From a virus (Duplodnaviria; Caudoviricetes), in the IMG/VR virus record IMGVR_UViG_3300032225_001536, positions 1 through 61,473 of that record: DNA of 61,473 nt; one strand, given 5' to 3'. Shown piece after piece: positions 14,153-24,726 of the stretch (positions within the stretch are counted from its first letter, which is position 1; each line of letters opens with the position of its first letter). The notes under the pieces were generated by a model. It was not told the origin of the DNA and ran no database searches. It saw nothing but the letters and a program-made list of their open reading frames with translations. A program made the translations under genes and the position numbers.

Positions 14153-15607
14153 ATGATTTTTGAAATTAAGGCCACTCGATTTGAGGATGGTGATACAAAG
14201 ACTTTCCATTATGACAACATGAATAATGTGTTGACTGATGCTGATGGTAATGTTTTTGAATATCCAGAGGACCAAAGGCAACAAAACTTTAATAAACCCT
14301 ACAAGTCTTTTGATAAGAATCACCCTCTGAAAAAGGCCAAATTGATTAGTACATTAAAAATCCAAATGGGTTTAAGTTGTAATTATTCTTGTGATTATTG
14401 TTCACAGAAGTTTGTGGAACGTCAAGTGGAAACATCCAAGAAGGATATCGATGACTTCATGGAAAAAATAAAAGCACTACACTTTGATGAAGATGTTGGA
14501 CTGAAGGTTGAGTTTTGGGGTGGTGAACCATTGGTTTATTGGAAAACACTAAAACCATTGGCGGAAGCTATTGCTGAAAAATTTGAATCATGGAAAAGAA
14601 AACCACAGTTTGGTATCATCACCAACGGCTCAATTTTAACTGATGAGATTATCGATTGGTTAATGATGATGGACTTTTCTGTGGCAATCTCACATGATGG
14701 ACCAGGCCAACACGTCCGTGGTCCTGATCCGTTTGATGATCCTGAGAAAAAAGAAACAATTCTTGGTTTCCGTAGAATGATGATTAGACTAGGTAAGCAT
14801 TTCAGTTTCAATTCAATGTTGAATTCTAAAAACCAAAGTAGAAAAGAAATCTATGATTGGTTTGTAAACCTGACTGGTGACGAAGATGTTATTCTTGGTG
14901 AAGGTTCTCTGGTTGATGCTTATGATGAAGAAGGTATTTCCAACTCATTGATAACAAAACAAGAACACTTTCAATTTAGGCAGAAAGCTTTTGGTGAATT
15001 GTATGGAACCCAAGGCAAGATAGGTTTCAGAGGTCAACTAGGTAAGATTGATGATTTTATTACTGGTGTATTAAGTCACAGACAATCCAAATTCGTTGGA
15101 CAGAAATGTGGTATGGACGATGAACATACGATTGCAGTTGACTTACGTGGTAACGTAATGACTTGCCAGAACGTTAGTTCATTGGAAATCTCTAAGAACG
15201 GAGAATCACATCATGGTGGAACTTTGGATGACTATTCAAATGTACAATTAAAATCTGTTACACATTGGTCAAATCGTAAAGAATGTCCAGAATGTCCAGT
15301 ACTACACCTATGTAAAGGTGCTTGTATGTTCTTGGATGAGAAATTCTGGGATATTTCTTGTTCTAATGCCTATTCAGATAATGTGGCTCTATTTGCCGCT
15401 GGTTTTACATTAATGACAAACGGTTATATTCCAACTCTGATTAAGAGTGATACATTACCATTAGACAGACAAGACATTTTTGGTACTATTTTTGACCACG
15501 GAATCGATGAAGGTCGTAAAAAAATCATACCAATCAAGGTGGTTAAAGAGATTGTTGGTGAAGTAGACGATGTTCCTGTTTACGGCAAATCTAGGTTGGA
15601 AACATAA
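14153..15607 (+). CDS. radical SAM enzyme with SPASM domain (peptide/protein maturase family)
   Basis: CNYSCDYC cluster motif, FWGGEPL, ITNGS, AISHDG; SPASM cysteines CGMDD...VDLRGNVMTC...CPECPVLHLCKGAC...C; GAGGA RBS. Confidence 0.92.
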   Translation: MIFEIKATRFEDGDTKTFHYDNMNNVLTDADGNVFEYPEDQRQQNFNKPYKSFDKNHPLKKAKLISTLKIQMGLSCNYSCDYCSQKFVERQVETSKKDIDDFMEKIKALHFDEDVGLKVEFWGGEPLVYWKTLKPLAEAIAEKFESWKRKPQFGIITNGSILTDEIIDWLMMMDFSVAISHDGPGQHVRGPDPFDDPEKKETILGFRRMMIRLGKHFSFNSMLNSKNQSRKEIYDWFVNLTGDEDVILGEGSLVDAYDEEGISNSLITKQEHFQFRQKAFGELYGTQGKIGFRGQLGKIDDFITGVLSHRQSKFVGQKCGMDDEHTIAVDLRGNVMTCQNVSSLEISKNGESHHGGTLDDYSNVQLKSVTHWSNRKECPECPVLHLCKGACMFLDEKFWDISCSNAYSDNVALFAAGFTLMTNGYIPTLIKSDTLPLDRQDIFGTIFDHGIDEGRKKIIPIKVVKEIVGEVDDVPVYGKSRLET

Positions 15608-15640: not shown

Positions 15641-16546
15641 ATGACACTACCTTTATCTGCAAATACAATTTCCGTAGCCCAAATTGAAACCGAACTTACA
15701 ATTAATGTTGGAACACAAAAAGATTTGAATTTTTTAAATGGTTATATAAAATCTGGTTTAAGGCCGGCATCACCAAATATGGCCGCTTTTTTTGGTTTGA
15801 AGTATTATTTACAGAATTCTGCTGGTAACTGTAATAATGCTAATATATCAAATTGTAACTGTGATAACTGTAGTAGTCCCGCAAGTAATTGCAGCGCAAC
15901 AAATAACTGTAGTAATGTAAATTGTGCAAACTGTGACGCACAAGCATGGTTGCAACTTGGTGATTGTTTTAATGATCCAGCACCCGTTTATAATTGTACT
16001 AGTGACCAAAATTGTTTCTTGGTTGATTGTAATTGTTCAAAGATTATTTGCACCAAATTATTTGACTTAGGCCTAATGAAGAAGAATATCTTTGAAGCTG
16101 ACCAAGCATTTGGTGAACAATTAATCAAAACTCATCCAGACATTTACAATGGTTATCGTGCATGGGCTGAGATTGTTGTTGATTGGATGGACGGCAAAGG
16201 ACCGAAGATGATGCCTTGGATGTCTGATGAAGATTTTAGTATAGCTGCCAAAAAATGGTCTATCACATGGGCTCACGATATTGCAACACCTTGGGCTGAA
16301 GAAATGGCCTATTTGATGGGTGAAAAAGAAACTGGTAGTCTTACTGGTAAAATGATGTTTGCATTTGGTACACCAATCTGTAAAGTTATTGGTGTATGGC
16401 AACGTTGGTTTGGTCCAAGTAAGAAAGAACCTGGTTTCTTAAAAGGTGCAGGTCTTGTTATTATTTTTGTCATGTTCAAATTGGTTGCAGAACTTGGTAG
16501 ATTGATTGAAAGGTTCATTCCTAAAAAGGAGTTGTCTAATGGATGA
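15641..16546 (+). CDS. Asn/Asp-Cys repeat protein, putative radical SAM substrate, with virion-protein-like N-terminus and a C-terminal KIICT domain
   Basis: Residues 63-132 carry 13 Cys, 11 as NC and 2 as DC; N-terminus MTLPLSANTISVAQIETE resembles 22682 MTLPTSGNPIKLSDIQTE; hydrophobic C-terminal helix. Confidence 0.7.
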   Translation: MTLPLSANTISVAQIETELTINVGTQKDLNFLNGYIKSGLRPASPNMAAFFGLKYYLQNSAGNCNNANISNCNCDNCSSPASNCSATNNCSNVNCANCDAQAWLQLGDCFNDPAPVYNCTSDQNCFLVDCNCSKIICTKLFDLGLMKKNIFEADQAFGEQLIKTHPDIYNGYRAWAEIVVDWMDGKGPKMMPWMSDEDFSIAAKKWSITWAHDIATPWAEEMAYLMGEKETGSLTGKMMFAFGTPICKVIGVWQRWFGPSKKEPGFLKGAGLVIIFVMFKLVAELGRLIERFIPKKELSNG

Positions 16547-16841
16547 AGAAGTTACAGAGATAAAACAACCTGTTTTAATAACCACAGATGACGATGGTGA
16601 ATCTTTTATACATGACCATCTAACACATTTCTTTAATACACAAAGTTATAATATTATCAATTCGTTTTCTCAAACAGACAAAGAACGTTATTTCAAATTG
16701 GTAACTGAACATGAATCTTTGATAACAAAGCTTTATGGAGATGCTGTATTGAATGCTCAAGGATTTGTTCCAGTGGCTTTGAGAAATGGTGTTGATAATG
16801 AATTGGTTCAACAATATAAAATATGGTTGGAGACAAGATGA
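16539..16841 (+). CDS. hypothetical protein (paralogue of the next gene)
   Basis: AAGGAG RBS before ATG 16539; FIHDHLTHFF...FSQTDKERYF aligns with the next ORF. Confidence 0.65.
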   Translation: MDEEVTEIKQPVLITTDDDGESFIHDHLTHFFNTQSYNIINSFSQTDKERYFKLVTEHESLITKLYGDAVLNAQGFVPVALRNGVDNELVQQYKIWLETR

Positions 16842-17218
16842 AAGATACCTACACCTCAATGGAAACCGTAACAACCTGTTGTGGTAATACGGTTATTTTC
16901 GTTCATAGTCAGGTAATGAAATTCTTCAAAGAAACATTTGAAAAAAATTATTCAAATTTCACAACTGAAGAAAAAGAAGAATTCTTTCACATTGATAATG
17001 AATATGGAGATTTGTTGGCCAAGATTTGGAAAGAACCACTGCAAGATATGTTGAAAACTTCATATGGTGCTGATTGGGCGTTGCCACATGAAGAAAGAAA
17101 TCCAACACAAGAGTATGAATATGTTTTGGCAAACAGAGACAATGATTTAACTGATGAACAATACAATCTAAAATTAGAAAGATTGAGACAACACAAAGAA
17201 TGGTTTGAAAGTCAGTAA
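16838..17218 (+). CDS. hypothetical protein (paralogue of the previous gene)
   Basis: ATGA overlap, GGAG RBS; FVHSQVMKFF...FTTEEKEEFF. Confidence 0.65.
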   Translation: MKDTYTSMETVTTCCGNTVIFVHSQVMKFFKETFEKNYSNFTTEEKEEFFHIDNEYGDLLAKIWKEPLQDMLKTSYGADWALPHEERNPTQEYEYVLANRDNDLTDEQYNLKLERLRQHKEWFESQ

Positions 17219-17232
17219 GAATACTTTTTATT

Positions 17233-17946
17233 ATGAAACAAAATATTATGACAAAAGCGGAAAGAGACCGCTATCACTGGTATCAAAATGCACAAAATAT
17301 GTTTTGGCAAAGTCCAATCTGGGAAGTTCAAACCAGATTTGATGAGCAATTTAATCAAACCTTATTAGATGAAATTTACGGTATCGGAAAAGATATCGTA
17401 TTGGGTAAAGATAAAGACCCAAAAAATAGTATATGGGACTACAGCAGACCCAATTTAGATATACTAAAACAAGAAATTATAGATATTGTAACCAAAAAAA
17501 TTGTACAGAATATTCCACAACTTAGGATGTTAAACATTCGTGGTTGTGAACATTTTATGGGTTGGATTAATGTCCGAGAGCCAGGTGAACAATTAGAAGT
17601 ACATGGACATACCGAATCAGCAATCGCTGCAACATATTATATTAAAGCAAAAGAAGGTTGTGGTGATTTAGTTGCCTTTGATTCATCAAATGCAATTGAT
17701 TGGTTAAACAACCGTCTGAGTGCAAATCCATCTTTACGTGAACGTAGATTTAAACCAGTAGAAGGTAGATTAATTTTCTTTCCATCATATGTATTACATG
17801 GTGTGGATGAGAATAAATCAAATGACCTGCGTATTTCTTTATCAACTGACCTCAGAAAAGTAGTAGAGAAAAATGCTGCTAATACTGTTATCTTAAAATC
17901 TTGGGCTAACAGAATGGCAAAAATTAAAGAATGGAAACCTGATTGA
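17233..17946 (+). CDS. 2OG-Fe(II) oxygenase (TIGR02466-like)
   Basis: WINV..PG....VHGH...ATYY...GDL...GRLIFFPSYVLHGV...RISLS. Confidence 0.85.
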   Translation: MKQNIMTKAERDRYHWYQNAQNMFWQSPIWEVQTRFDEQFNQTLLDEIYGIGKDIVLGKDKDPKNSIWDYSRPNLDILKQEIIDIVTKKIVQNIPQLRMLNIRGCEHFMGWINVREPGEQLEVHGHTESAIAATYYIKAKEGCGDLVAFDSSNAIDWLNNRLSANPSLRERRFKPVEGRLIFFPSYVLHGVDENKSNDLRISLSTDLRKVVEKNAANTVILKSWANRMAKIKEWKPD

Positions 17947-18479
17947 TGTTTACCAAATTGGCAAAGCCATTTGAAAGACCACTTTATGCAATCACCGATC
18001 CACTAAAGACATTTAAAGGTGATGATGGTAGAGGCATAGATTACAAAAAAGTTTGGACACCAGAAGTAGAAAAAGTTTATGGTGTGTTACCAAAAAAATA
18101 CTGGCAAGATTTTCACTTGACAGTTATGACAATTGATTGTATAATACCACCACATACGGATACAGAAATTATTACCTCAATTAATTTCTATCTACAAACA
18201 GAAGGATGTAGAACTACATTTTTTAAACCAAAGGTGAATAATCCAAGAACAGTACAGATTAAGAATCAAACTAATGGATGTATTTACTACGAAGAAGATT
18301 TGGTTGAGGTAGATAGTTTTGTTGCAGAAGATTATGATGTATGGTTGCTTGATGTAAGTCAAATACACAGCGTAAAAGGAGACTTTAAACTTAGAAAAGC
18401 CCTTACGTTAGGTACTTTCGTACATAAGTATGAGGAGGTACTTGAAATGTTAAAGGAAACAGGCAATGTCGTTCGTTAA
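17946..18479 (+). CDS. cupin / 2OG-Fe(II) oxygenase-like protein
   Basis: IPPHTD (HxD), INFY, LLDVSQIHSV (distal His), RKALT (Arg); TGATG coupling. Confidence 0.7.
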   Translation: MFTKLAKPFERPLYAITDPLKTFKGDDGRGIDYKKVWTPEVEKVYGVLPKKYWQDFHLTVMTIDCIIPPHTDTEIITSINFYLQTEGCRTTFFKPKVNNPRTVQIKNQTNGCIYYEEDLVEVDSFVAEDYDVWLLDVSQIHSVKGDFKLRKALTLGTFVHKYEEVLEMLKETGNVVR

Positions 18480-19134
18480 ATTAAAACATCTATATGAATA
18501 TATGCCACATACAATTATACCAAAAGGTCAAGCAGATTCATTTGCCGGTAAATTTGGTTTAGGAGTTAGACACAATACAATTTGGACACCTGAACCAGAA
18601 AAAATGGTGTTATATAAAGTTATTCCTGAAAGATACTGGAAAGATTTTCAAGTAACTCGTATGTCAATTAATAGTTTGTTATTACCTCATGTTGATAATG
18701 ATTTTATAACTACTATTAATTTTTATTATGAACCAGGAGATTACAGAACAATTTTCTTCAAAGCGAAAGACGGTGCTAATGCTTGGAAAACAGAAGAAGA
18801 TAGGCATACGGATGTTGATATTGGCAACATGGAAGCAACAGATATTAATGTGGATGATTTGAAAAGTCGTGTTAAAGAATTTGTAGCGGAGAAACAAAAT
18901 ATGCCGACATGTGAAGAAATCACATATGTTGATGCAGTATACTCTTTTGATGATGTATATGAAATTGGTTCTTTTGTGGCACAACGAAATGAAGCATATA
19001 TGTTAGATGTTAGAGTACCACACAATGTTGAACCTTTGGATGGCACCAAACTCAGGAAAGCGTTTGCCTTGAGAACTAGATACTATGATTATGGTCAAGT
19101 TTATGATATGTTAAAAGAAACTGGAAATTTATAA
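18466..19134 (+). CDS. cupin / 2OG-Fe(II) oxygenase-like protein, paralogue of 17946
   Basis: LLPHVD, INFY, MLDVRVPHNV, RKAFA; shares WTPE.EK, YW.DF and MLKETGN with the upstream gene. Confidence 0.7.
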   Translation: MSFVKLKHLYEYMPHTIIPKGQADSFAGKFGLGVRHNTIWTPEPEKMVLYKVIPERYWKDFQVTRMSINSLLLPHVDNDFITTINFYYEPGDYRTIFFKAKDGANAWKTEEDRHTDVDIGNMEATDINVDDLKSRVKEFVAEKQNMPTCEEITYVDAVYSFDDVYEIGSFVAQRNEAYMLDVRVPHNVEPLDGTKLRKAFALRTRYYDYGQVYDMLKETGNL

Positions 19135-19144
19135 AGGAAATAAG

Positions 19145-19918
19145 ATGTTTTTTGAGAAATTGGATTACACAGTTGATATTGAAAAATTAAAAAAAGAAGT
19201 ACGAGAAAGTGTATTCACATTAGGTGACCAAGTTGTTCAAGGCGAAGAATATGAAACACCACAATATCATGGTTTTGGTGGTTGGAGTTTGCTAAGTAGA
19301 AACGCCACATGGACTGATGGTTGGGAAGCCGTTCAGTTAGAATCTGGCCAAACACTAGAATCTTTTTTACCAACACAAGAATTAGTAAACAAAGCATATA
19401 AACATTTTGGTATATATCATGGGTTAGAACACGATAAACCAACGGAAGCTTATGTTGGTGAAATTAAAAAAGTATTAGATGATTTACGTGAACTTGGTTT
19501 TCATCCTTGTAGAGCAAGAGTCACTTGTTTGAAAGCACATTCAAAGAGTTTGGTTCACAAAGATTCAAATGAATCGGAATATATGGCTCGTATTCATATA
19601 CCATTATGGACAAATAAAAAGTCGATTCATATCTGTCGTGGCATGAATTTGCATATGCCTGCTGATGGTAGTGTTTATATTCTTTGGACAAATACTTGGC
19701 ATCAAATTAGAAATGATTCTGATGAAGACCGTTATCATATTATTATGGATGCATATGATACAAAGAAAATTACAAAGAGATTTAAATATGAAGGTGATTT
19801 TGAAATGTACCAAAATTGGGTACGTGGCCAGATGCAAAAAATTCATGATGTTGAATTAACTGAAGAAGATATTGATTTCTTTGAAGCAATTAAAGATAAG
19901 TACCTGAGTAAAAAATAA
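19145..19918 (+). CDS. Asp/Asn beta-hydroxylase-like 2OG-Fe(II) oxygenase
   Basis: RARVTCL..HSKSLVHKD, RIHIPLWTN, WHQIRN...RYHII. Confidence 0.75.
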   Translation: MFFEKLDYTVDIEKLKKEVRESVFTLGDQVVQGEEYETPQYHGFGGWSLLSRNATWTDGWEAVQLESGQTLESFLPTQELVNKAYKHFGIYHGLEHDKPTEAYVGEIKKVLDDLRELGFHPCRARVTCLKAHSKSLVHKDSNESEYMARIHIPLWTNKKSIHICRGMNLHMPADGSVYILWTNTWHQIRNDSDEDRYHIIMDAYDTKKITKRFKYEGDFEMYQNWVRGQMQKIHDVELTEEDIDFFEAIKDKYLSKK

Positions 19919-19921
19919 ATT

Positions 19922-21442
19922 ATGGATGACAGACATGGTATTATATTCACCGGTATGGAACGAACTAGAACAATTAGTCGTCCTGCCGGCGCTGCACGTT
20001 TGCGAACGTTTTTAGAAAAACATAATTATAATATCGAAGTTATAGATTATTTTGGTAATTTTACTGAAAAAGAATTGGAAAAACTTTGTGAAAGATACAT
20101 TGGTCCAAAAACTTTATTTGTTGGTATAAGTATCACATTCATCTATGCCTTTGATAAAATTAATTATCTATTTAAACATATTAAAGAAAAGTATCCTCAT
20201 GTAAAAACTTTGATTGGTGGTAATGAAACACCAATCGAAGGTGTCGATTTATCTATGGTAGATAAAATCTTTTGGGGTTATGCCGAAGAAGCAGTATTAC
20301 ATTATCTTAAATTTTTAACCAGAAAACTATTGAATGATTTACCTTGGGTGCCTTATAGAGGAACAAAATCTGTCAATGCGGAGATGTTATACAAAAATGA
20401 CACCGAAGATTTATCAATCAAATGGTTGGAAAGTGATTTGATTAAAAACAATTTTCTACCAATTGAAATTAGTAGGGGTTGTATCTTTAGATGTAGGTTC
20501 TGTGCATTCCCTTTGTTGGGTAAGAAGAAGAATGATTACATTCGTCACGTAGATAATCTATCCGATGAACTAAGAAGAAACTATGAAATGTTTGGTGTCA
20601 CCAACTATTGGTTCAATGATGATACATTTAATGATAATGTGGTAAAATTGGAGTATGTTGCCGAAGCCATTGCAAAAAGTGGTGTTAAGATAACATATAC
20701 AGCATTTCTTAGAGCAGATTTGATTGAACGTTTTCCTGAAACTATTCCGATGCTAGGTGACACAGGCTTGGTAGCGGCCACATTTGGCTTAGAAACATTA
20801 CATCCAGAAGCAAAAAAAGCTATTGGTAAAGGATTAGATAATGAAAGACAATTTGAGGCTATTCGTCAGTTAAAGAAATACAAACCAACATACACATATA
20901 CAGGCATGATTTGTGGTTTACCTGGAGAACCAATTTCTAGTGTATTGAAAAGTCAACAGTTGTTACTTGACCAAAATTTTGAAGTATTTGATAATTGGGA
21001 TTGGTGGCCACTATTGATTAGAAAAGGTTCTATCAGTCGTTTGAGTGAATTTGAACGTGAGTATGAAAAGTGGGGTTATTCCGAAATGTTACCTGGAGAA
21101 TATACAGTTCCTTCAGGTGACAATGATTTAAAATACGCTACCGATAATGACGGCGTTATGATATGGAAAAATAAGTATACAAATTGGTACACTTGTAGAG
21201 GAATTACCAGCCAATTAAATATTGAAACCGAAAAACACAGAATTAAAGCCGGCAAATCAATTTATGGCAATGCAGATAAAGGTGTAAGTATTAACCATGA
21301 TGTATACGAATTAGTTGGACTAGGTGTTGATATTAAGGACATTATCAACGGTACTTTTGATAAAGCTCTTTTGAATAAAAAAATACGTGAGGCTGATGAA
21401 ACAATTTTGGAATACAAAAAATTGAAGTTGGGTTTATTATGA
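19922..21442 (+). CDS. cobalamin-binding radical SAM enzyme (class B methyltransferase-like)
   Basis: N-terminal B12-binding-like region (GAARLRTFL...VGISITF...TLIGG...GYAE), EISRGCIFRCRFC, FNDDTF, FGLET, ICGLPGE. Confidence 0.88.
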   Translation: MDDRHGIIFTGMERTRTISRPAGAARLRTFLEKHNYNIEVIDYFGNFTEKELEKLCERYIGPKTLFVGISITFIYAFDKINYLFKHIKEKYPHVKTLIGGNETPIEGVDLSMVDKIFWGYAEEAVLHYLKFLTRKLLNDLPWVPYRGTKSVNAEMLYKNDTEDLSIKWLESDLIKNNFLPIEISRGCIFRCRFCAFPLLGKKKNDYIRHVDNLSDELRRNYEMFGVTNYWFNDDTFNDNVVKLEYVAEAIAKSGVKITYTAFLRADLIERFPETIPMLGDTGLVAATFGLETLHPEAKKAIGKGLDNERQFEAIRQLKKYKPTYTYTGMICGLPGEPISSVLKSQQLLLDQNFEVFDNWDWWPLLIRKGSISRLSEFEREYEKWGYSEMLPGEYTVPSGDNDLKYATDNDGVMIWKNKYTNWYTCRGITSQLNIETEKHRIKAGKSIYGNADKGVSINHDVYELVGLGVDIKDIINGTFDKALLNKKIREADETILEYKKLKLGLL

Positions 21443-22038
21443 AATGTTTCTGGACAAGAGAAGAAATATCTATTGCAGATGAATTGATGGAATTAGCACC
21501 ACAATTACGTGATGAATTTTTAGAATATCATAAAGATTTTGACACAACATTTAAAGGTGGTACACCATACTCTGCAGTTAACTCTCAGGCAATTTTAGAT
21601 GATGTTCCAGGAAAAATTGATTGGAAAGTTGAAGGTCTACGTTATGCTTTACCAGAAAGAAAAATAGAACAGAATCTTTTTTTGGAATCAAGAATCGCTA
21701 CTATTTTTCCAACAGCAACAAAGTTAACTAAGAAATATTTCAAGTGTGTTGGTTGTAGTGGTTACAGCAGTTTAGAACCTTATGGTATAATCAAAAAACA
21801 CGTTGATGTTGAAAACAGGCGGCATAAATTTGTTAGAATACATATACCACTAATCATACCAGAAGGTGATGTTGGCCTTGAGGTTAATGGTCAAAAATTA
21901 TATTGGTCAGATTTGTTTGCATTTGATAATGGAGAAAAACATAGTGCATACAACAGAACCAAAAAACGAAGATTAATTTATATTATAGATATAACTAGAG
22001 ATTTCTTATCAATTCCTGAATACAAAAATAATGTTTAA
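21439..22038 (+). CDS. aspartyl/asparaginyl beta-hydroxylase family protein
   Basis: YSSLEPYGIIKKHVD, RIHIPLIIPEG, FAFDNGEKHSAYN...RLIYIID. Confidence 0.82.
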   Translation: MKCFWTREEISIADELMELAPQLRDEFLEYHKDFDTTFKGGTPYSAVNSQAILDDVPGKIDWKVEGLRYALPERKIEQNLFLESRIATIFPTATKLTKKYFKCVGCSGYSSLEPYGIIKKHVDVENRRHKFVRIHIPLIIPEGDVGLEVNGQKLYWSDLFAFDNGEKHSAYNRTKKRRLIYIIDITRDFLSIPEYKNNV

Positions 22039-22681: not shown

Positions 22682-23878
22682 ATGACACTACCAACATCAG
22701 GTAATCCAATCAAATTATCCGACATTCAAACAGAATATGGTGGTTCGAATCCAATCAGTATAAGTGAATATAGGAGTGGTGCTGGTTATGTTAGTTATAC
22801 TGAAAGTGGTGTCGGTACTTCGCAAGTGAACATTGGAAGCTTAAGGGGTTTAAGTTCATTAACCACCAATCCACGAGCCAACAATATCTCATCTCTTTCT
22901 TCATTTTTCAATACAAGTACATACAGGATGAATGGTATAAGGATGGACAGTATTGATGGAAAAAATGTTGTTGCAACTGCAGAAGTTTTTGATACCACGG
23001 GTTTTACTATTGCTATTGCATCTTTTTATTCAAACAATTCCGGCAATACCTGGACACAAGGCAATTCAATTTCAATATTTCGTCCAGTACTTTCAGACAT
23101 GAGATATGTTCCTTGGGCTGAACTATATGTGATGTGTGCAAACTCAAACAACCAAAGATCCGTAATTTACACTTCACCGGATGGTGTAACATGGACAGCA
23201 AAAACAAATTATCCTGTTTGGTATCTTGGTACACCTGGTGGTTCATCTGATGCACGCTTTTATGTCACCAGCAATGGTTTGTATGCATACACATATGGAG
23301 GTGAAGTAAGTTACACGACTTCTTATAGTGGAGGAGATTTCACTTGGACAACACCAGTTAAAATTATTCCATTAGATGGTACCAATAGAAGACCTGTTAA
23401 CCAATTGATATTTGATGGTACATATTGGTATGCTGGATCATATAAAGGATTGTTTAGGAATACAAGTTTAAGTACACCAGATTGGACACCATTAACATTT
23501 GGTAATGGTCAAACATGTTATGGAATAACTTATAATTCATCAACATATGAATATTTGTGTCAAATTGGTTCATATTATTATAAATCTACAGACGGATTTA
23601 CATCATCTTCATACACTGCCGTAAATGGGGGGTATAGCACTGGTGGTCCTATTGTGTGGGATCCAGTAACAAAGATATATGCTCAACGAACTAATAGCTA
23701 TTCAGTATTATCTGTAAGTACTGATGGTGTTTATTGGGTAAATGCAAGTTCAAATTATAGCATGTATTTTTATAGTAATCCAGTTTTTAAAAATGGTACA
23801 TTATTTGCGGCTGGATCAGATGCTGCTGCTTACGGCTCAGGCACATGGCATTGGTATTTTTTGAGAGGACCAAATTAA
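22682..23878 (+). CDS. putative tail-tip adhesin / receptor-binding protein with Asp-box (BNR) beta-propeller
   Basis: N-terminal LPTSG.PI.LSDIQTEYGGSNPISISEY motif of phage fibre-associated proteins; Asp-box-like repeats YSNNSGNTW, YTSPDGVTW, YKSTDGFT, VSTDGVYW. Confidence 0.65.
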   Translation: MTLPTSGNPIKLSDIQTEYGGSNPISISEYRSGAGYVSYTESGVGTSQVNIGSLRGLSSLTTNPRANNISSLSSFFNTSTYRMNGIRMDSIDGKNVVATAEVFDTTGFTIAIASFYSNNSGNTWTQGNSISIFRPVLSDMRYVPWAELYVMCANSNNQRSVIYTSPDGVTWTAKTNYPVWYLGTPGGSSDARFYVTSNGLYAYTYGGEVSYTTSYSGGDFTWTTPVKIIPLDGTNRRPVNQLIFDGTYWYAGSYKGLFRNTSLSTPDWTPLTFGNGQTCYGITYNSSTYEYLCQIGSYYYKSTDGFTSSSYTAVNGGYSTGGPIVWDPVTKIYAQRTNSYSVLSVSTDGVYWVNASSNYSMYFYSNPVFKNGTLFAAGSDAAAYGSGTWHWYFLRGPN

Positions 23879-24276: not shown

Positions 24277-24726
24277 ATGAAGAAGTTAGTATTATCTGCG
24301 TTAGCAGTAGTATCGTTAGCTGCAAGCGCAGTTGAAGTTGGTGTGACAGCAGTTGACCAATCATCACTAAGTCCAAAACGTTATGGTTATGGTGTTACAG
24401 TTGGTGAAACATTTGCTGGTGTTAATGTAACTGCTGGTGCTTCACGTTTTTCACGTGAAGATAATGACCAAAATCGTTATACTTTAGTTGCTAGCAAAGA
24501 TGTTGTTTCTTTAGGTCCAGTTGGTTTCAATGGTCGTCTAGGTACAGCTTACTTGTCTAATAACACAGGCGCAAATGGTTTTGCATTAACTGCTGGTGTT
24601 GGTGCAACTGTTCCGGTTATGAAAAATGTAACTGCTGGATTGTCGTTTGACCGCCAGTTCGGCCAAAGCCGTGTTAGTTCTTTTGACGGTAATATTATTA
24701 CTGCTGGAATTAAAGTAGGATTCTAA
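24277..24726 (+). CDS. small outer-membrane beta-barrel protein (Ail/Lom/OmpX-like)
   Basis: Sec signal MKKLVLSALAVVSLAASA; alternating hydrophobic beta-strands; C-terminal AGIKVGF BAM signal; AGGAG RBS. Confidence 0.78.
   Translation: MKKLVLSALAVVSLAASAVEVGVTAVDQSSLSPKRYGYGVTVGETFAGVNVTAGASRFSREDNDQNRYTLVASKDVVSLGPVGFNGRLGTAYLSNNTGANGFALTAGVGATVPVMKNVTAGLSFDRQFGQSRVSSFDGNIITAGIKVGF

Follow-up and report, generated by a model that had tools for sequence, protein, structure and literature searches.

The window studied here is a single stretch of viral DNA of 61,473 nucleotides, and all coordinates below refer to its full length. It is part of a T4-like aquatic myophage: gp59, gp32 and PhoH are present, and baseplate and tail-fibre families of the PHROG collection are matched downstream. 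At positions 15641 to 16546, the window encodes a modular protein, P0001, which contains a domain rich in Asn-Cys pairs. The gene for a radical SAM/SPASM enzyme, P0122, ends 33 bases upstream of the P0001 open reading frame (ORF). It was found that the enzyme and the Asn-Cys sequence are linked in many phages and prophages, and the domain is proposed to be a substrate of the enzyme. The two genes and the parts of P0001 are as follows.

14153-15607, plus strand: P0122, radical SAM/SPASM enzyme of 484 residues, the proposed modifying enzyme; Pfam Radical_SAM at 3.2e-10, phrog_1802 at 1.6e-60
15641-16546 (stop codon included), plus strand: P0001, modular protein of 301 residues; translated ORF with three parts
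15641-15823, plus strand: N-terminal module of P0001, residues 1-61; motif MTLPxSGxIxxSxIxTE, kept in the alignment of relatives
15824-16039, plus strand: Asn-Cys-rich domain of P0001, residues 62-133; 13 conserved Cys columns; contains the previously described span 15827-16036
16040-16543, plus strand: C-terminal module of P0001 (C-module), residues 134-301; starts with KIICTKL; independent of the radical SAM enzyme

A preliminary description of the window had pointed to 15827-16036 as a putative core peptide with 13 Cys in 70 residues, 11 of them preceded by Asn and two by Asp. Translation of 15641-16546 bears out this composition. The span corresponds to residues 63-132 of P0001, identical to the sequence described before, with 11 NC and two DC pairs (D108-C109 and D129-C130), and the NCNC, NVNC and DCNC motifs are all found in it. 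The term core peptide was wrong for P0001, because the stretch is an internal domain of a three-part protein of 301 residues and not the core of a short precursor. When the 70-residue stretch was shuffled, none of 200,000 permutations had 13 pairs of Asn or Asp (Asx) with Cys (the maximum was 11), and none had 11 or more NC. Shuffling the entire P0001 sequence likewise gave 13 or more Asx-Cys pairs in 0 of 200,000 permutations. In the other plus-strand ORFs of at least 90 residues in the window, Asn precedes only 5 of 147 Cys (3.4%). The two Cys of P0001 outside the domain, C137 and C247, each follow Ile and both lie in the C-module. A tandem-repeat artefact at the DNA level was ruled out as the origin of the stretch, as a tandem-repeat search gave no rows. 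Neither P0001 as a whole nor any of its parts has a match in Pfam (not even at E<=5), PHROG or NCBIfam, and a profile search of the PDB with P0001 returned only spurious cytochrome and antibody rows. The public Atlas structure model of P0001 is poor (predicted local distance difference test score 0.59), and its structural neighbours are viral clusters without names.

Is the Asn before Cys conserved? A protein search yielded 742 candidates, among which 434 are homologues of P0001 at E<=1e-3. Alignment A1 was made from 89 near full-length proteins among the best 120 of these 434; fragments, C-module-only forms and near-duplicates were left out, and P0015 was excluded because its C-terminus is aberrant and rich in Cys. 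The preliminary description had named conservation of Asx before Cys as the check on its claim, and this conservation was found. Across the 1,173 domain Cys of the 89 homologues, the preceding residue is Asn in 84%, Asp in 5%, Gln in 5% and Ala in 4%. The frequency of Asn is 84% at position -1 versus 32% at -3 and 32% at +1, and among the ten commonest residues at +3 and +4, Asp appears only at +4 (9%). There are 13 conserved Cys columns in A1. Asn is the commonest residue at -1 in 12 of them, being present in 89 of 89 sequences at two columns; the thirteenth (C84) is preceded by Gln in 47, Asn in 34, Glu in four and Asp in three. Four columns are variable; of their 76 cells without Cys, 56 also lack the Asn. 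Since Asn dominates -1 and disappears together with Cys at the variable columns, the Asn-Cys pair behaves as a unit, which supports its standing as a conserved motif. Thus, the conserved feature is the adjacent Asn. The NxxC/DxxC spacings noted earlier are not the key, and a fixed donor-acceptor spacing of either NxxC or CX3D fails on the same frequencies.

The spacing of the Cys themselves could also be read without any modification. The Asn-Cys domain would then be a metal-binding or disulfide ladder of Cys, for example with metals along the axis of a fibre-tip trimer, and the enzyme and its neighbouring oxygenases would serve another substrate. CxC and CxCxC prevail in the domain, with 2 as the most frequent spacing (262 of 1,084 intervals), as in metal-binding proteins. 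With Asn and Cys alternating, a beta-strand would have all its Cys on the same face, and there are tail fibres with metal ions bound along the axis. On the other hand, a strict Asn at -1 is unneeded for metal sites, and no metal-binding family was matched. The gene linkage also bears on this reading and is described after the enzyme.

P0122 was confirmed as the SPASM enzyme that the preliminary description had seen next to the Cys-rich stretch, by its motifs in addition to the Radical_SAM match. The radical SAM motif CX3CX2C is CNYSCDYC at residues 76-83, and its three Cys are kept in 141 of 141 relatives. The seven-Cys SPASM motif is complete (C319-x18-C338 with G-x4-C; C378-x2-C381-x5-C387-x3-C391; C403), and its Cys are conserved in 140-141 of the 141 relatives. 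The conserved Cys columns number exactly ten, three plus seven. The Pfam SPASM model gave no match to P0122 at E<=0.01. Residues 1-65 are conserved as well, with F3, Y20, D21, L27 and G32 invariant. The relatives of P0122 at E<=1e-10 form 3,050 clusters at 90% identity, with source names shown as 'uncharacterized protein' or none, and the family ranges over T4-like aquatic myophages, Achromobacter siphoviruses and prophages in freshwater Burkholderiales. Among solved structures, the chains closest to P0122 are 8vpo_A (9e-12) and 5wgg_A (1e-9), the latter presumably CteB. The closest NCBIfam models are the PapB, geopeptide and QhpD maturases, which are the best for all ten aligned enzymes. The bit scores of P0122 against the curated cut-offs are 82/340 for PapB, 79.9/400 for geopeptide, 67/453 for QhpD, 67.1/500 for CcpM and 47.6/349 for the anaerobic sulfatase-maturing enzymes (anSME). 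Judged from its sequence, P0122 represents a subfamily of SPASM enzymes without a name.

The linkage of the two genes was analysed from three starting points. Starting from the protein, I collected 80 IMG/VR loci, of which 61 match the N-terminal or NC part of P0001 and 19 match the C-module only and served as controls. The enzyme lies upstream in 60 of the 61 loci, at a median gap of 38 bases, and the sole enzyme-less locus has no upstream DNA. In contrast, only one of the 19 C-module-only loci (L054) has the enzyme. This locus encodes a 263-residue protein with NCYNCNCNCNC ahead of the C-module and two paralogues of 101 and 98 residues, both of which end in NCYNCNCNCNCNC. The enzyme there is 44% identical, is followed by a 2-oxoglutarate (2OG)-type gene and lies near the NC proteins. 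A complete 337-kilobase phage with a Gly-rich protein bearing the C-module has no enzyme orthologue. The possibility that the C-module is part of the enzyme's target was rejected on these grounds, as 18 of the 19 C-module-only loci and the 337-kilobase phage lack the enzyme.

Starting from the enzyme, with alignment A2, relatives were found in at least 556 viral and 209 bacterial-genome stretches, and the best 80 of each were used. An ORF was called NC-rich if it has at least four NC that make up at least half of its Cys. Such an ORF is near the enzyme in 76 of the 80 viral loci and, among the 80 bacterial (prophage) loci, in 52. With any other residue before Cys, the same rule was satisfied by no more than 1 viral and 11 bacterial loci out of 80 each. 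A looser rule raised the bacterial count to 61 of 80, a few of these being false rows (for example, L302_11903 and L348_2598), and many of the leftover misses are short contigs or proteins ending in NCNCNCDCCC. Among the distinct NC tails, 45 of 59 end exactly in Cys. Starting from the DNA, a blind scan with the (NC)4 pattern for NCNCNCNC matched over 120 viral stretches, and 80 of them were analysed. Forty of these were taken as positives, having an ORF of at least 90 residues with the run no more than 40 residues from its end. The enzyme is present in 30 of these 40 loci versus 3 of the remaining 40 (2 of 33 with short ORFs and 1 of 7 with long ORFs having the run elsewhere). Thus, the link of the enzyme to the Asn-Cys sequence, suggested earlier from this one window, holds whichever of the two is taken as the start, in divergent phages and prophages alike.

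What are the proteins that carry the motif? Single-linkage clustering of the Cys-free parts of the candidate substrates gave 75 P0001-type proteins, 67 fibre-type proteins and six clusters of one or two members. The two large groups are unrelated outside the Cys part. The notion of many unrelated fibre families was rejected, since only two large groups appeared in the clustering. The near-obligate two-way linkage with one SPASM family across two unrelated substrate groups is left unexplained by an unmodified metal or disulfide ladder, as is the absence of the enzyme where poly-Gly replaces NC before the C-module, and I regard such a ladder as improbable.

Most NC-tailed relatives are fibre-type proteins of 200-600 residues with the motif at the C-terminal tip. 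They bear collagen-like and fibre repeats, and most of the NC-rich proteins of the bacterial loci are tail-fibre proteins that end in NCNCNC. In prophages of Limnohabitans, Polynucleobacter, Comamonadaceae and others, their genes have tail and lysis genes as neighbours, and a tail-fibre PHROG was matched by three of the four fibre-type proteins tested. The Asn-Cys domain without the C-module was found in proteins of 131-176 residues from other phages and prophages, and the prophage copies in Polynucleobacter and Paraburkholderia have identical Cys columns and a CD-x-Q/R-x-WLQ block. Among cultured carriers are Achromobacter phage JWF, Achromobacter phage 2-1 and Ralstonia phage RSP15, whose side tail fibre has NTNCQCGN at its C-terminus. 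In three proteins, a Hint (intein-like) domain that starts at a Cys directly follows the NC run: JWF gp028 (L361 3811-5262; Hom_end_hint, 3e-12), L291 5217-6347 (1.4e-4) and L307 5742-7271 (9.5e-7). From these sequences, self-cleavage by the Hint domain is suggested, which would expose the NC run as the mature C-terminus.

Some relatives of only 98-151 residues end in NC runs. With their N-terminal part they resemble long-leader precursors, and the nearest named families of the enzyme are maturases of peptides that are made on ribosomes and modified post-translationally (RiPPs). The Asn-Cys stretch might accordingly be the core of a classical RiPP that is cut out as a small bioactive peptide, its flanks being leader and follower. 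However, no peptidase or exporter was recognised among the cluster genes scanned, most substrates are the 200-600-residue tail-fibre-type proteins among tail and lysis genes, and P0001 has modules in common with virion-type proteins. Together with the CD-Q-WLQ block, the 13 Cys columns are also a conserved pattern like that of a folded domain. A RiPP of this kind is therefore very improbable.

The flanking modules of P0001 were also traced. The N-module motif was spotted by eye in Gly-rich proteins bearing the C-module and is also kept in the prophage relatives. In the window, the 398-residue ORF at 22682-23878, which has no family, has the N-terminus MTLPxSGxIxLSDIQTE as in P0001, and parts of it match N-terminal portions of Gly-rich C-module proteins (L038, L052, L053 and L056). 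The N-terminal match of P0001 to this ORF is weak (BLASTP, 5e-4), and P0001 itself has no PHROG. The C-module matches 717 representative clusters at E<=1e-3, with no family. In the best 150 of the 717, the match mostly ends a few residues from the C-terminus, in proteins of 103-1859 residues. Poly-Gly precedes the C-module in 50 of 96 junctions. The C-module is fused to Gly_rich_2 or tail-type proteins and is found in a protein beside fibre genes of Synechococcus phage SynMITS9220M01; it is also sharply bounded in L034, L038, L061, L063, L067 and L069, and occurs without the enzyme. It contains a hydrophobic segment at residues 271-289 (Kyte-Doolittle mean 1.99) and, from its sequence, might act as a membrane anchor or be a domain that is processed.

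Downstream of P0001, further genes follow on the same strand. The fractions below are the numbers of loci, among the 61 with an N-terminal or NC match, in which each gene was found.

16506-16841, plus strand: ORF of 111 residues, no family; tblastn match in 32/61
16823-17218, plus strand: ORF of 131 residues, no family; tblastn match in 23/61
17233-17946, plus strand: 2OG-Fe(II) oxygenase (2OG-FeII_Oxy_5) of 237 residues; PF13759 at 6.9e-17, phrog_81 at 9e-27; 57/61
17943-18479, plus strand: probable 2OG/Fe(II)-type oxygenase of 178 residues, no Pfam match; H71-x-D73...H142...R151; 57/61
18466-19134, plus strand: paralogue of the 178-residue protein, 222 residues; cross-matches, identical invariant columns; 57/61
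19145-19918, plus strand: Asp/Asn beta-hydroxylase-like protein of 257 residues; PF05118 at 4.2e-7; 58/61
19922-21442, plus strand: B12-binding radical SAM protein of 506 residues; Radical_SAM at 1.8e-18, B12-binding at 1.9e-6; 23/61
21439-22038, plus strand: second Asp/Asn beta-hydroxylase-like protein, 199 residues; PF05118 at 7.5e-13; variable member, 13/61

The adjoining 2OG and aspartate hydroxylase (AspH)-like oxygenases belong to a conserved cluster, the main members being present in 57-58 of the 61 loci; the preliminary description had named adjacent Asp/Asn hydroxylase-like enzymes. The HxD...H...R pattern is invariant in 78 of 78 relatives of the 178- and 222-residue paralogues, which are thus probable 2OG/Fe(II) oxygenases that have been overlooked. 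If so, five oxygenase-like and two radical SAM genes would lie within 8 kilobases. None of the 19 control loci has the oxygenase, AspH-like or B12-binding radical SAM genes. The best NCBIfam match of the B12-binding protein is the PhpK-family P-methyltransferase (2e-27, below the cut-off), and this protein may be an optional extra tailoring step, since it is present only in 23 of the 61 related loci. In the enzyme-centred sets of 80 loci each, an oxygenase-like ORF was found in 70 viral and 61 bacterial loci. Taken together, the P0001 pair belongs to a large phage and prophage system without a name, in which proteins with NC runs, usually with NC last, are encoded beside an orthologue of the enzyme and at least one 2OG/Fe(II) oxygenase.

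Other ORFs of these loci were noted. A protein of about 250-285 residues ending in GFKY(F/W)..., with no Pfam match, is encoded between the NC-tailed fibre and radical SAM genes; it occurs in 50 of the 80 bacterial loci and in 4 of the 80 viral ones (for example, L290 6483-7340, L305 5128-5955, L054 9843-10676, L143 9307-10062 and L362 4314-5129), and may be a further partner of the Asn-Cys/enzyme system. At L054 8815-9846, there is an ORF of 343 residues without a Pfam match, in which an SGGxDS-like stretch reminiscent of PP-loop ATPases was seen by eye. In the window itself, the ORF at 24277-24726 (149 residues, no Pfam match) has a signal-peptide-like start and ends in GIKVGF; judged by eye from its sequence, it resembles a small beta-barrel protein of the outer membrane.

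How might these genes act together? The motif, its conservation, the enzyme motifs and the gene linkage are established here, and from them I infer that the enzyme acts on the domain, and further the kind of bond made and a structural role. The balance tips modestly in favour of the Asn-Cys domain of P0001 being a protein substrate of the adjoining radical SAM/SPASM enzyme, with its Cys probably cross-linked to Asn by thioethers. In this reaction, the Cys thiolate would bind to an auxiliary [4Fe-4S] cluster at its open iron site, a 5'-deoxyadenosyl radical would take a hydrogen from the alpha or beta carbon of the neighbouring Asn, and a C-S thioether would form between Cys and Asn. Many small rings or inter-chain staples would result, rigidifying the domain or the fibre tip, and the oxygenases could hydroxylate Asn, Asp or other residues of the same substrate. 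A thioether is favoured because the nearest named families of the enzyme (PapB, geopeptide and QhpD) form Cys thioethers to Asx or Glx, and because the residues tolerated at the acceptor position of the enzyme NxxcB, namely Ala, Gln and Asp, are the substitution set at -1. As seven and not eight auxiliary Cys are conserved, an iron site may be left for the substrate thiolate, as in CteB-type enzymes. The detailed picture is tentative and perhaps doubtful: each Asn-Cys pair may become a six- or seven-membered thioether ring (sulfur to the alpha or beta carbon) or an inter-chain staple, so that phages and prophages would chemically staple their host-recognition proteins, with hydroxyls added by the 2OG oxygenases.

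The enzyme might act on the Asn-Cys domain with other chemistry, such as the oxidation of Cys to formylglycine known from anaerobic sulfatase maturases, sactionine links to other residues, a carbon-carbon link or epimerisation, the Asn being an element of recognition or conformation. Gene linkage gives no clue to the bond type, and SPASM enzymes catalyse diverse reactions (PMC9389541). The full-length alignments of P0122 to anSME (residues 72-392, 1.2e-12), CcpM and DynA are about as weak as the PapB match. However, P0001 has no sulfatase-type C-x-P-x-R motif, the nearest being C-S-S-P-A, and the seven conserved auxiliary Cys stand against eight, with fully ligated clusters, in anSME. All ten enzymes match thioether formers best, and the Asp, Gln and Ala found at -1 coincide with the acceptor tolerance reported for NxxcB (PMC9389541). 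Thus, other chemistry is rather unlikely.

Several points weigh against the thioether proposal and the linkage on which it is built. P0122 scores far below every curated family cut-off, with most matches confined to the radical SAM core, and no RRE (RiPP recognition element)/PqqD-type leader-binding domain was found among its Pfam or NCBIfam matches. The substrate, at 301 residues, is unlike known RiPP precursors. I know of no precedent for thioethers between adjacent Asn and Cys residues, and the argument for an open iron site rests on the structures of CteB and anSME. In the blind scan, 10 of the 40 NC-tailed ORFs have no enzyme, five of these ten loci being 5.5 kilobases or shorter. The loci are also interrelated: the enzymes of the best 80 viral loci are 62-87% identical to P0122, and the linkage counts and their Fisher p values overstate independence because of this kinship. 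When substrate type was placed on the enzyme tree, 19 label changes were counted versus a shuffled mean of 63.5, which fits shared descent equally well as co-adaptation; the tree is compatible with co-inheritance only.

Comparison with known systems gave partial likenesses. The SPASM-type enzyme NxxcB joins the Cys sulfur to the Asn beta-carbon in NxxcA, and the acceptor tolerates Ala, Gln and Asp (PMC9389541), the very residues that replace Asn before Cys in the P0001 relatives. NxxcA is a short quorum-regulated streptococcal peptide with one link and with Asn three residues upstream of Cys (NxxC), whereas the present proteins are phage proteins of 100-600 residues with 11-17 Cys each and an adjacent Asn (84% versus 32% at -3). 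TqqB makes ether rings between adjacent residues (PMC9389541), so that small backbone rings have a precedent, with no Asn-Cys example known. The PapB/freyrasin type is the best NCBIfam match for ten of ten enzymes, but at 82 bits versus a cut-off of 340. PapB-type enzymes form multiple Cys-to-Asx thioethers in one substrate, a short precursor with a CX3D motif and an RRE-bound leader; in the present case, the Pfam and NCBIfam matches include no RRE, and a whole protein would be the substrate. QhpD is the third-best family for all ten enzymes, yet at 67 bits versus 453. It is a SPASM enzyme that cross-links Cys to Asp or Glu within a protein subunit, followed by an oxygenase step. Unlike QhpC, a periplasmic enzyme subunit with three links, P0001 is a putative structural-type phage protein with adjacent Asn-Cys pairs and 2OG oxygenases. 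The anaerobic sulfatase maturases are the founding SPASM enzymes and act on whole proteins at Cys, and JWF gp030, the enzyme of that phage, is so annotated in one record. In contrast to their substrates, P0001 has no (C/S)-x-P-x-R motif, and P0122 has 47.6 bits versus 349 and seven auxiliary Cys instead of eight. Membership of the ranthipeptides was rejected, as the domain is internal to the 301-residue P0001 and not part of a short leader-core precursor. As far as sequences tell, the system appears to work like ranthipeptide or QhpC-type cross-linking but differs from those families in score, precursor and spacing.

Arrays of 2OG dioxygenases in cyanophages, with their target unexplained, were described by Iyer et al. 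in 2010 (PMC2938197). Zaragoza-Solas et al. noted in 2020 (PMC7029224) that the host-recognition cluster of pelagimyophages has cassettes of radical SAM genes and that AspH is a core gene of these phages. The portions of these two papers covered here name no substrate, Asn-Cys motif or enzyme-substrate pairing. In a survey of titles and abstract openings of papers outside subscription journals, no Asn-Cys repeats and no radical SAM enzyme acting on phage fibres were described. One peptide-mining pipeline dropped predicted precursor genes longer than 600 bp (PMC10288494); peptide-centred genome mining with such a limit would miss the Asn-Cys system.

In the present system, a SPASM-type enzyme is tied to the two-residue motif Asn-Cys on phage proteins, mostly tail-fibre proteins. 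The established roles of radical SAM/SPASM enzymes lie in the maturation of short secreted peptides and of a few enzyme subunits. The sequences thus point to an undescribed chemical modification of phage proteins. If true, this would be, to my knowledge, the first case of virion proteins being modified after translation by a radical SAM enzyme, and the cross-link would have a new topology. It would provide a substrate and a purpose for the unexplained radical SAM/dioxygenase cassettes that marine and freshwater phages carry in their host-recognition regions, and NCNCNC would be a compact, genetically encodable stapling tag with its own enzyme. Covalent cross-linking would then join the means by which phages stabilise or tune their fibre tips.

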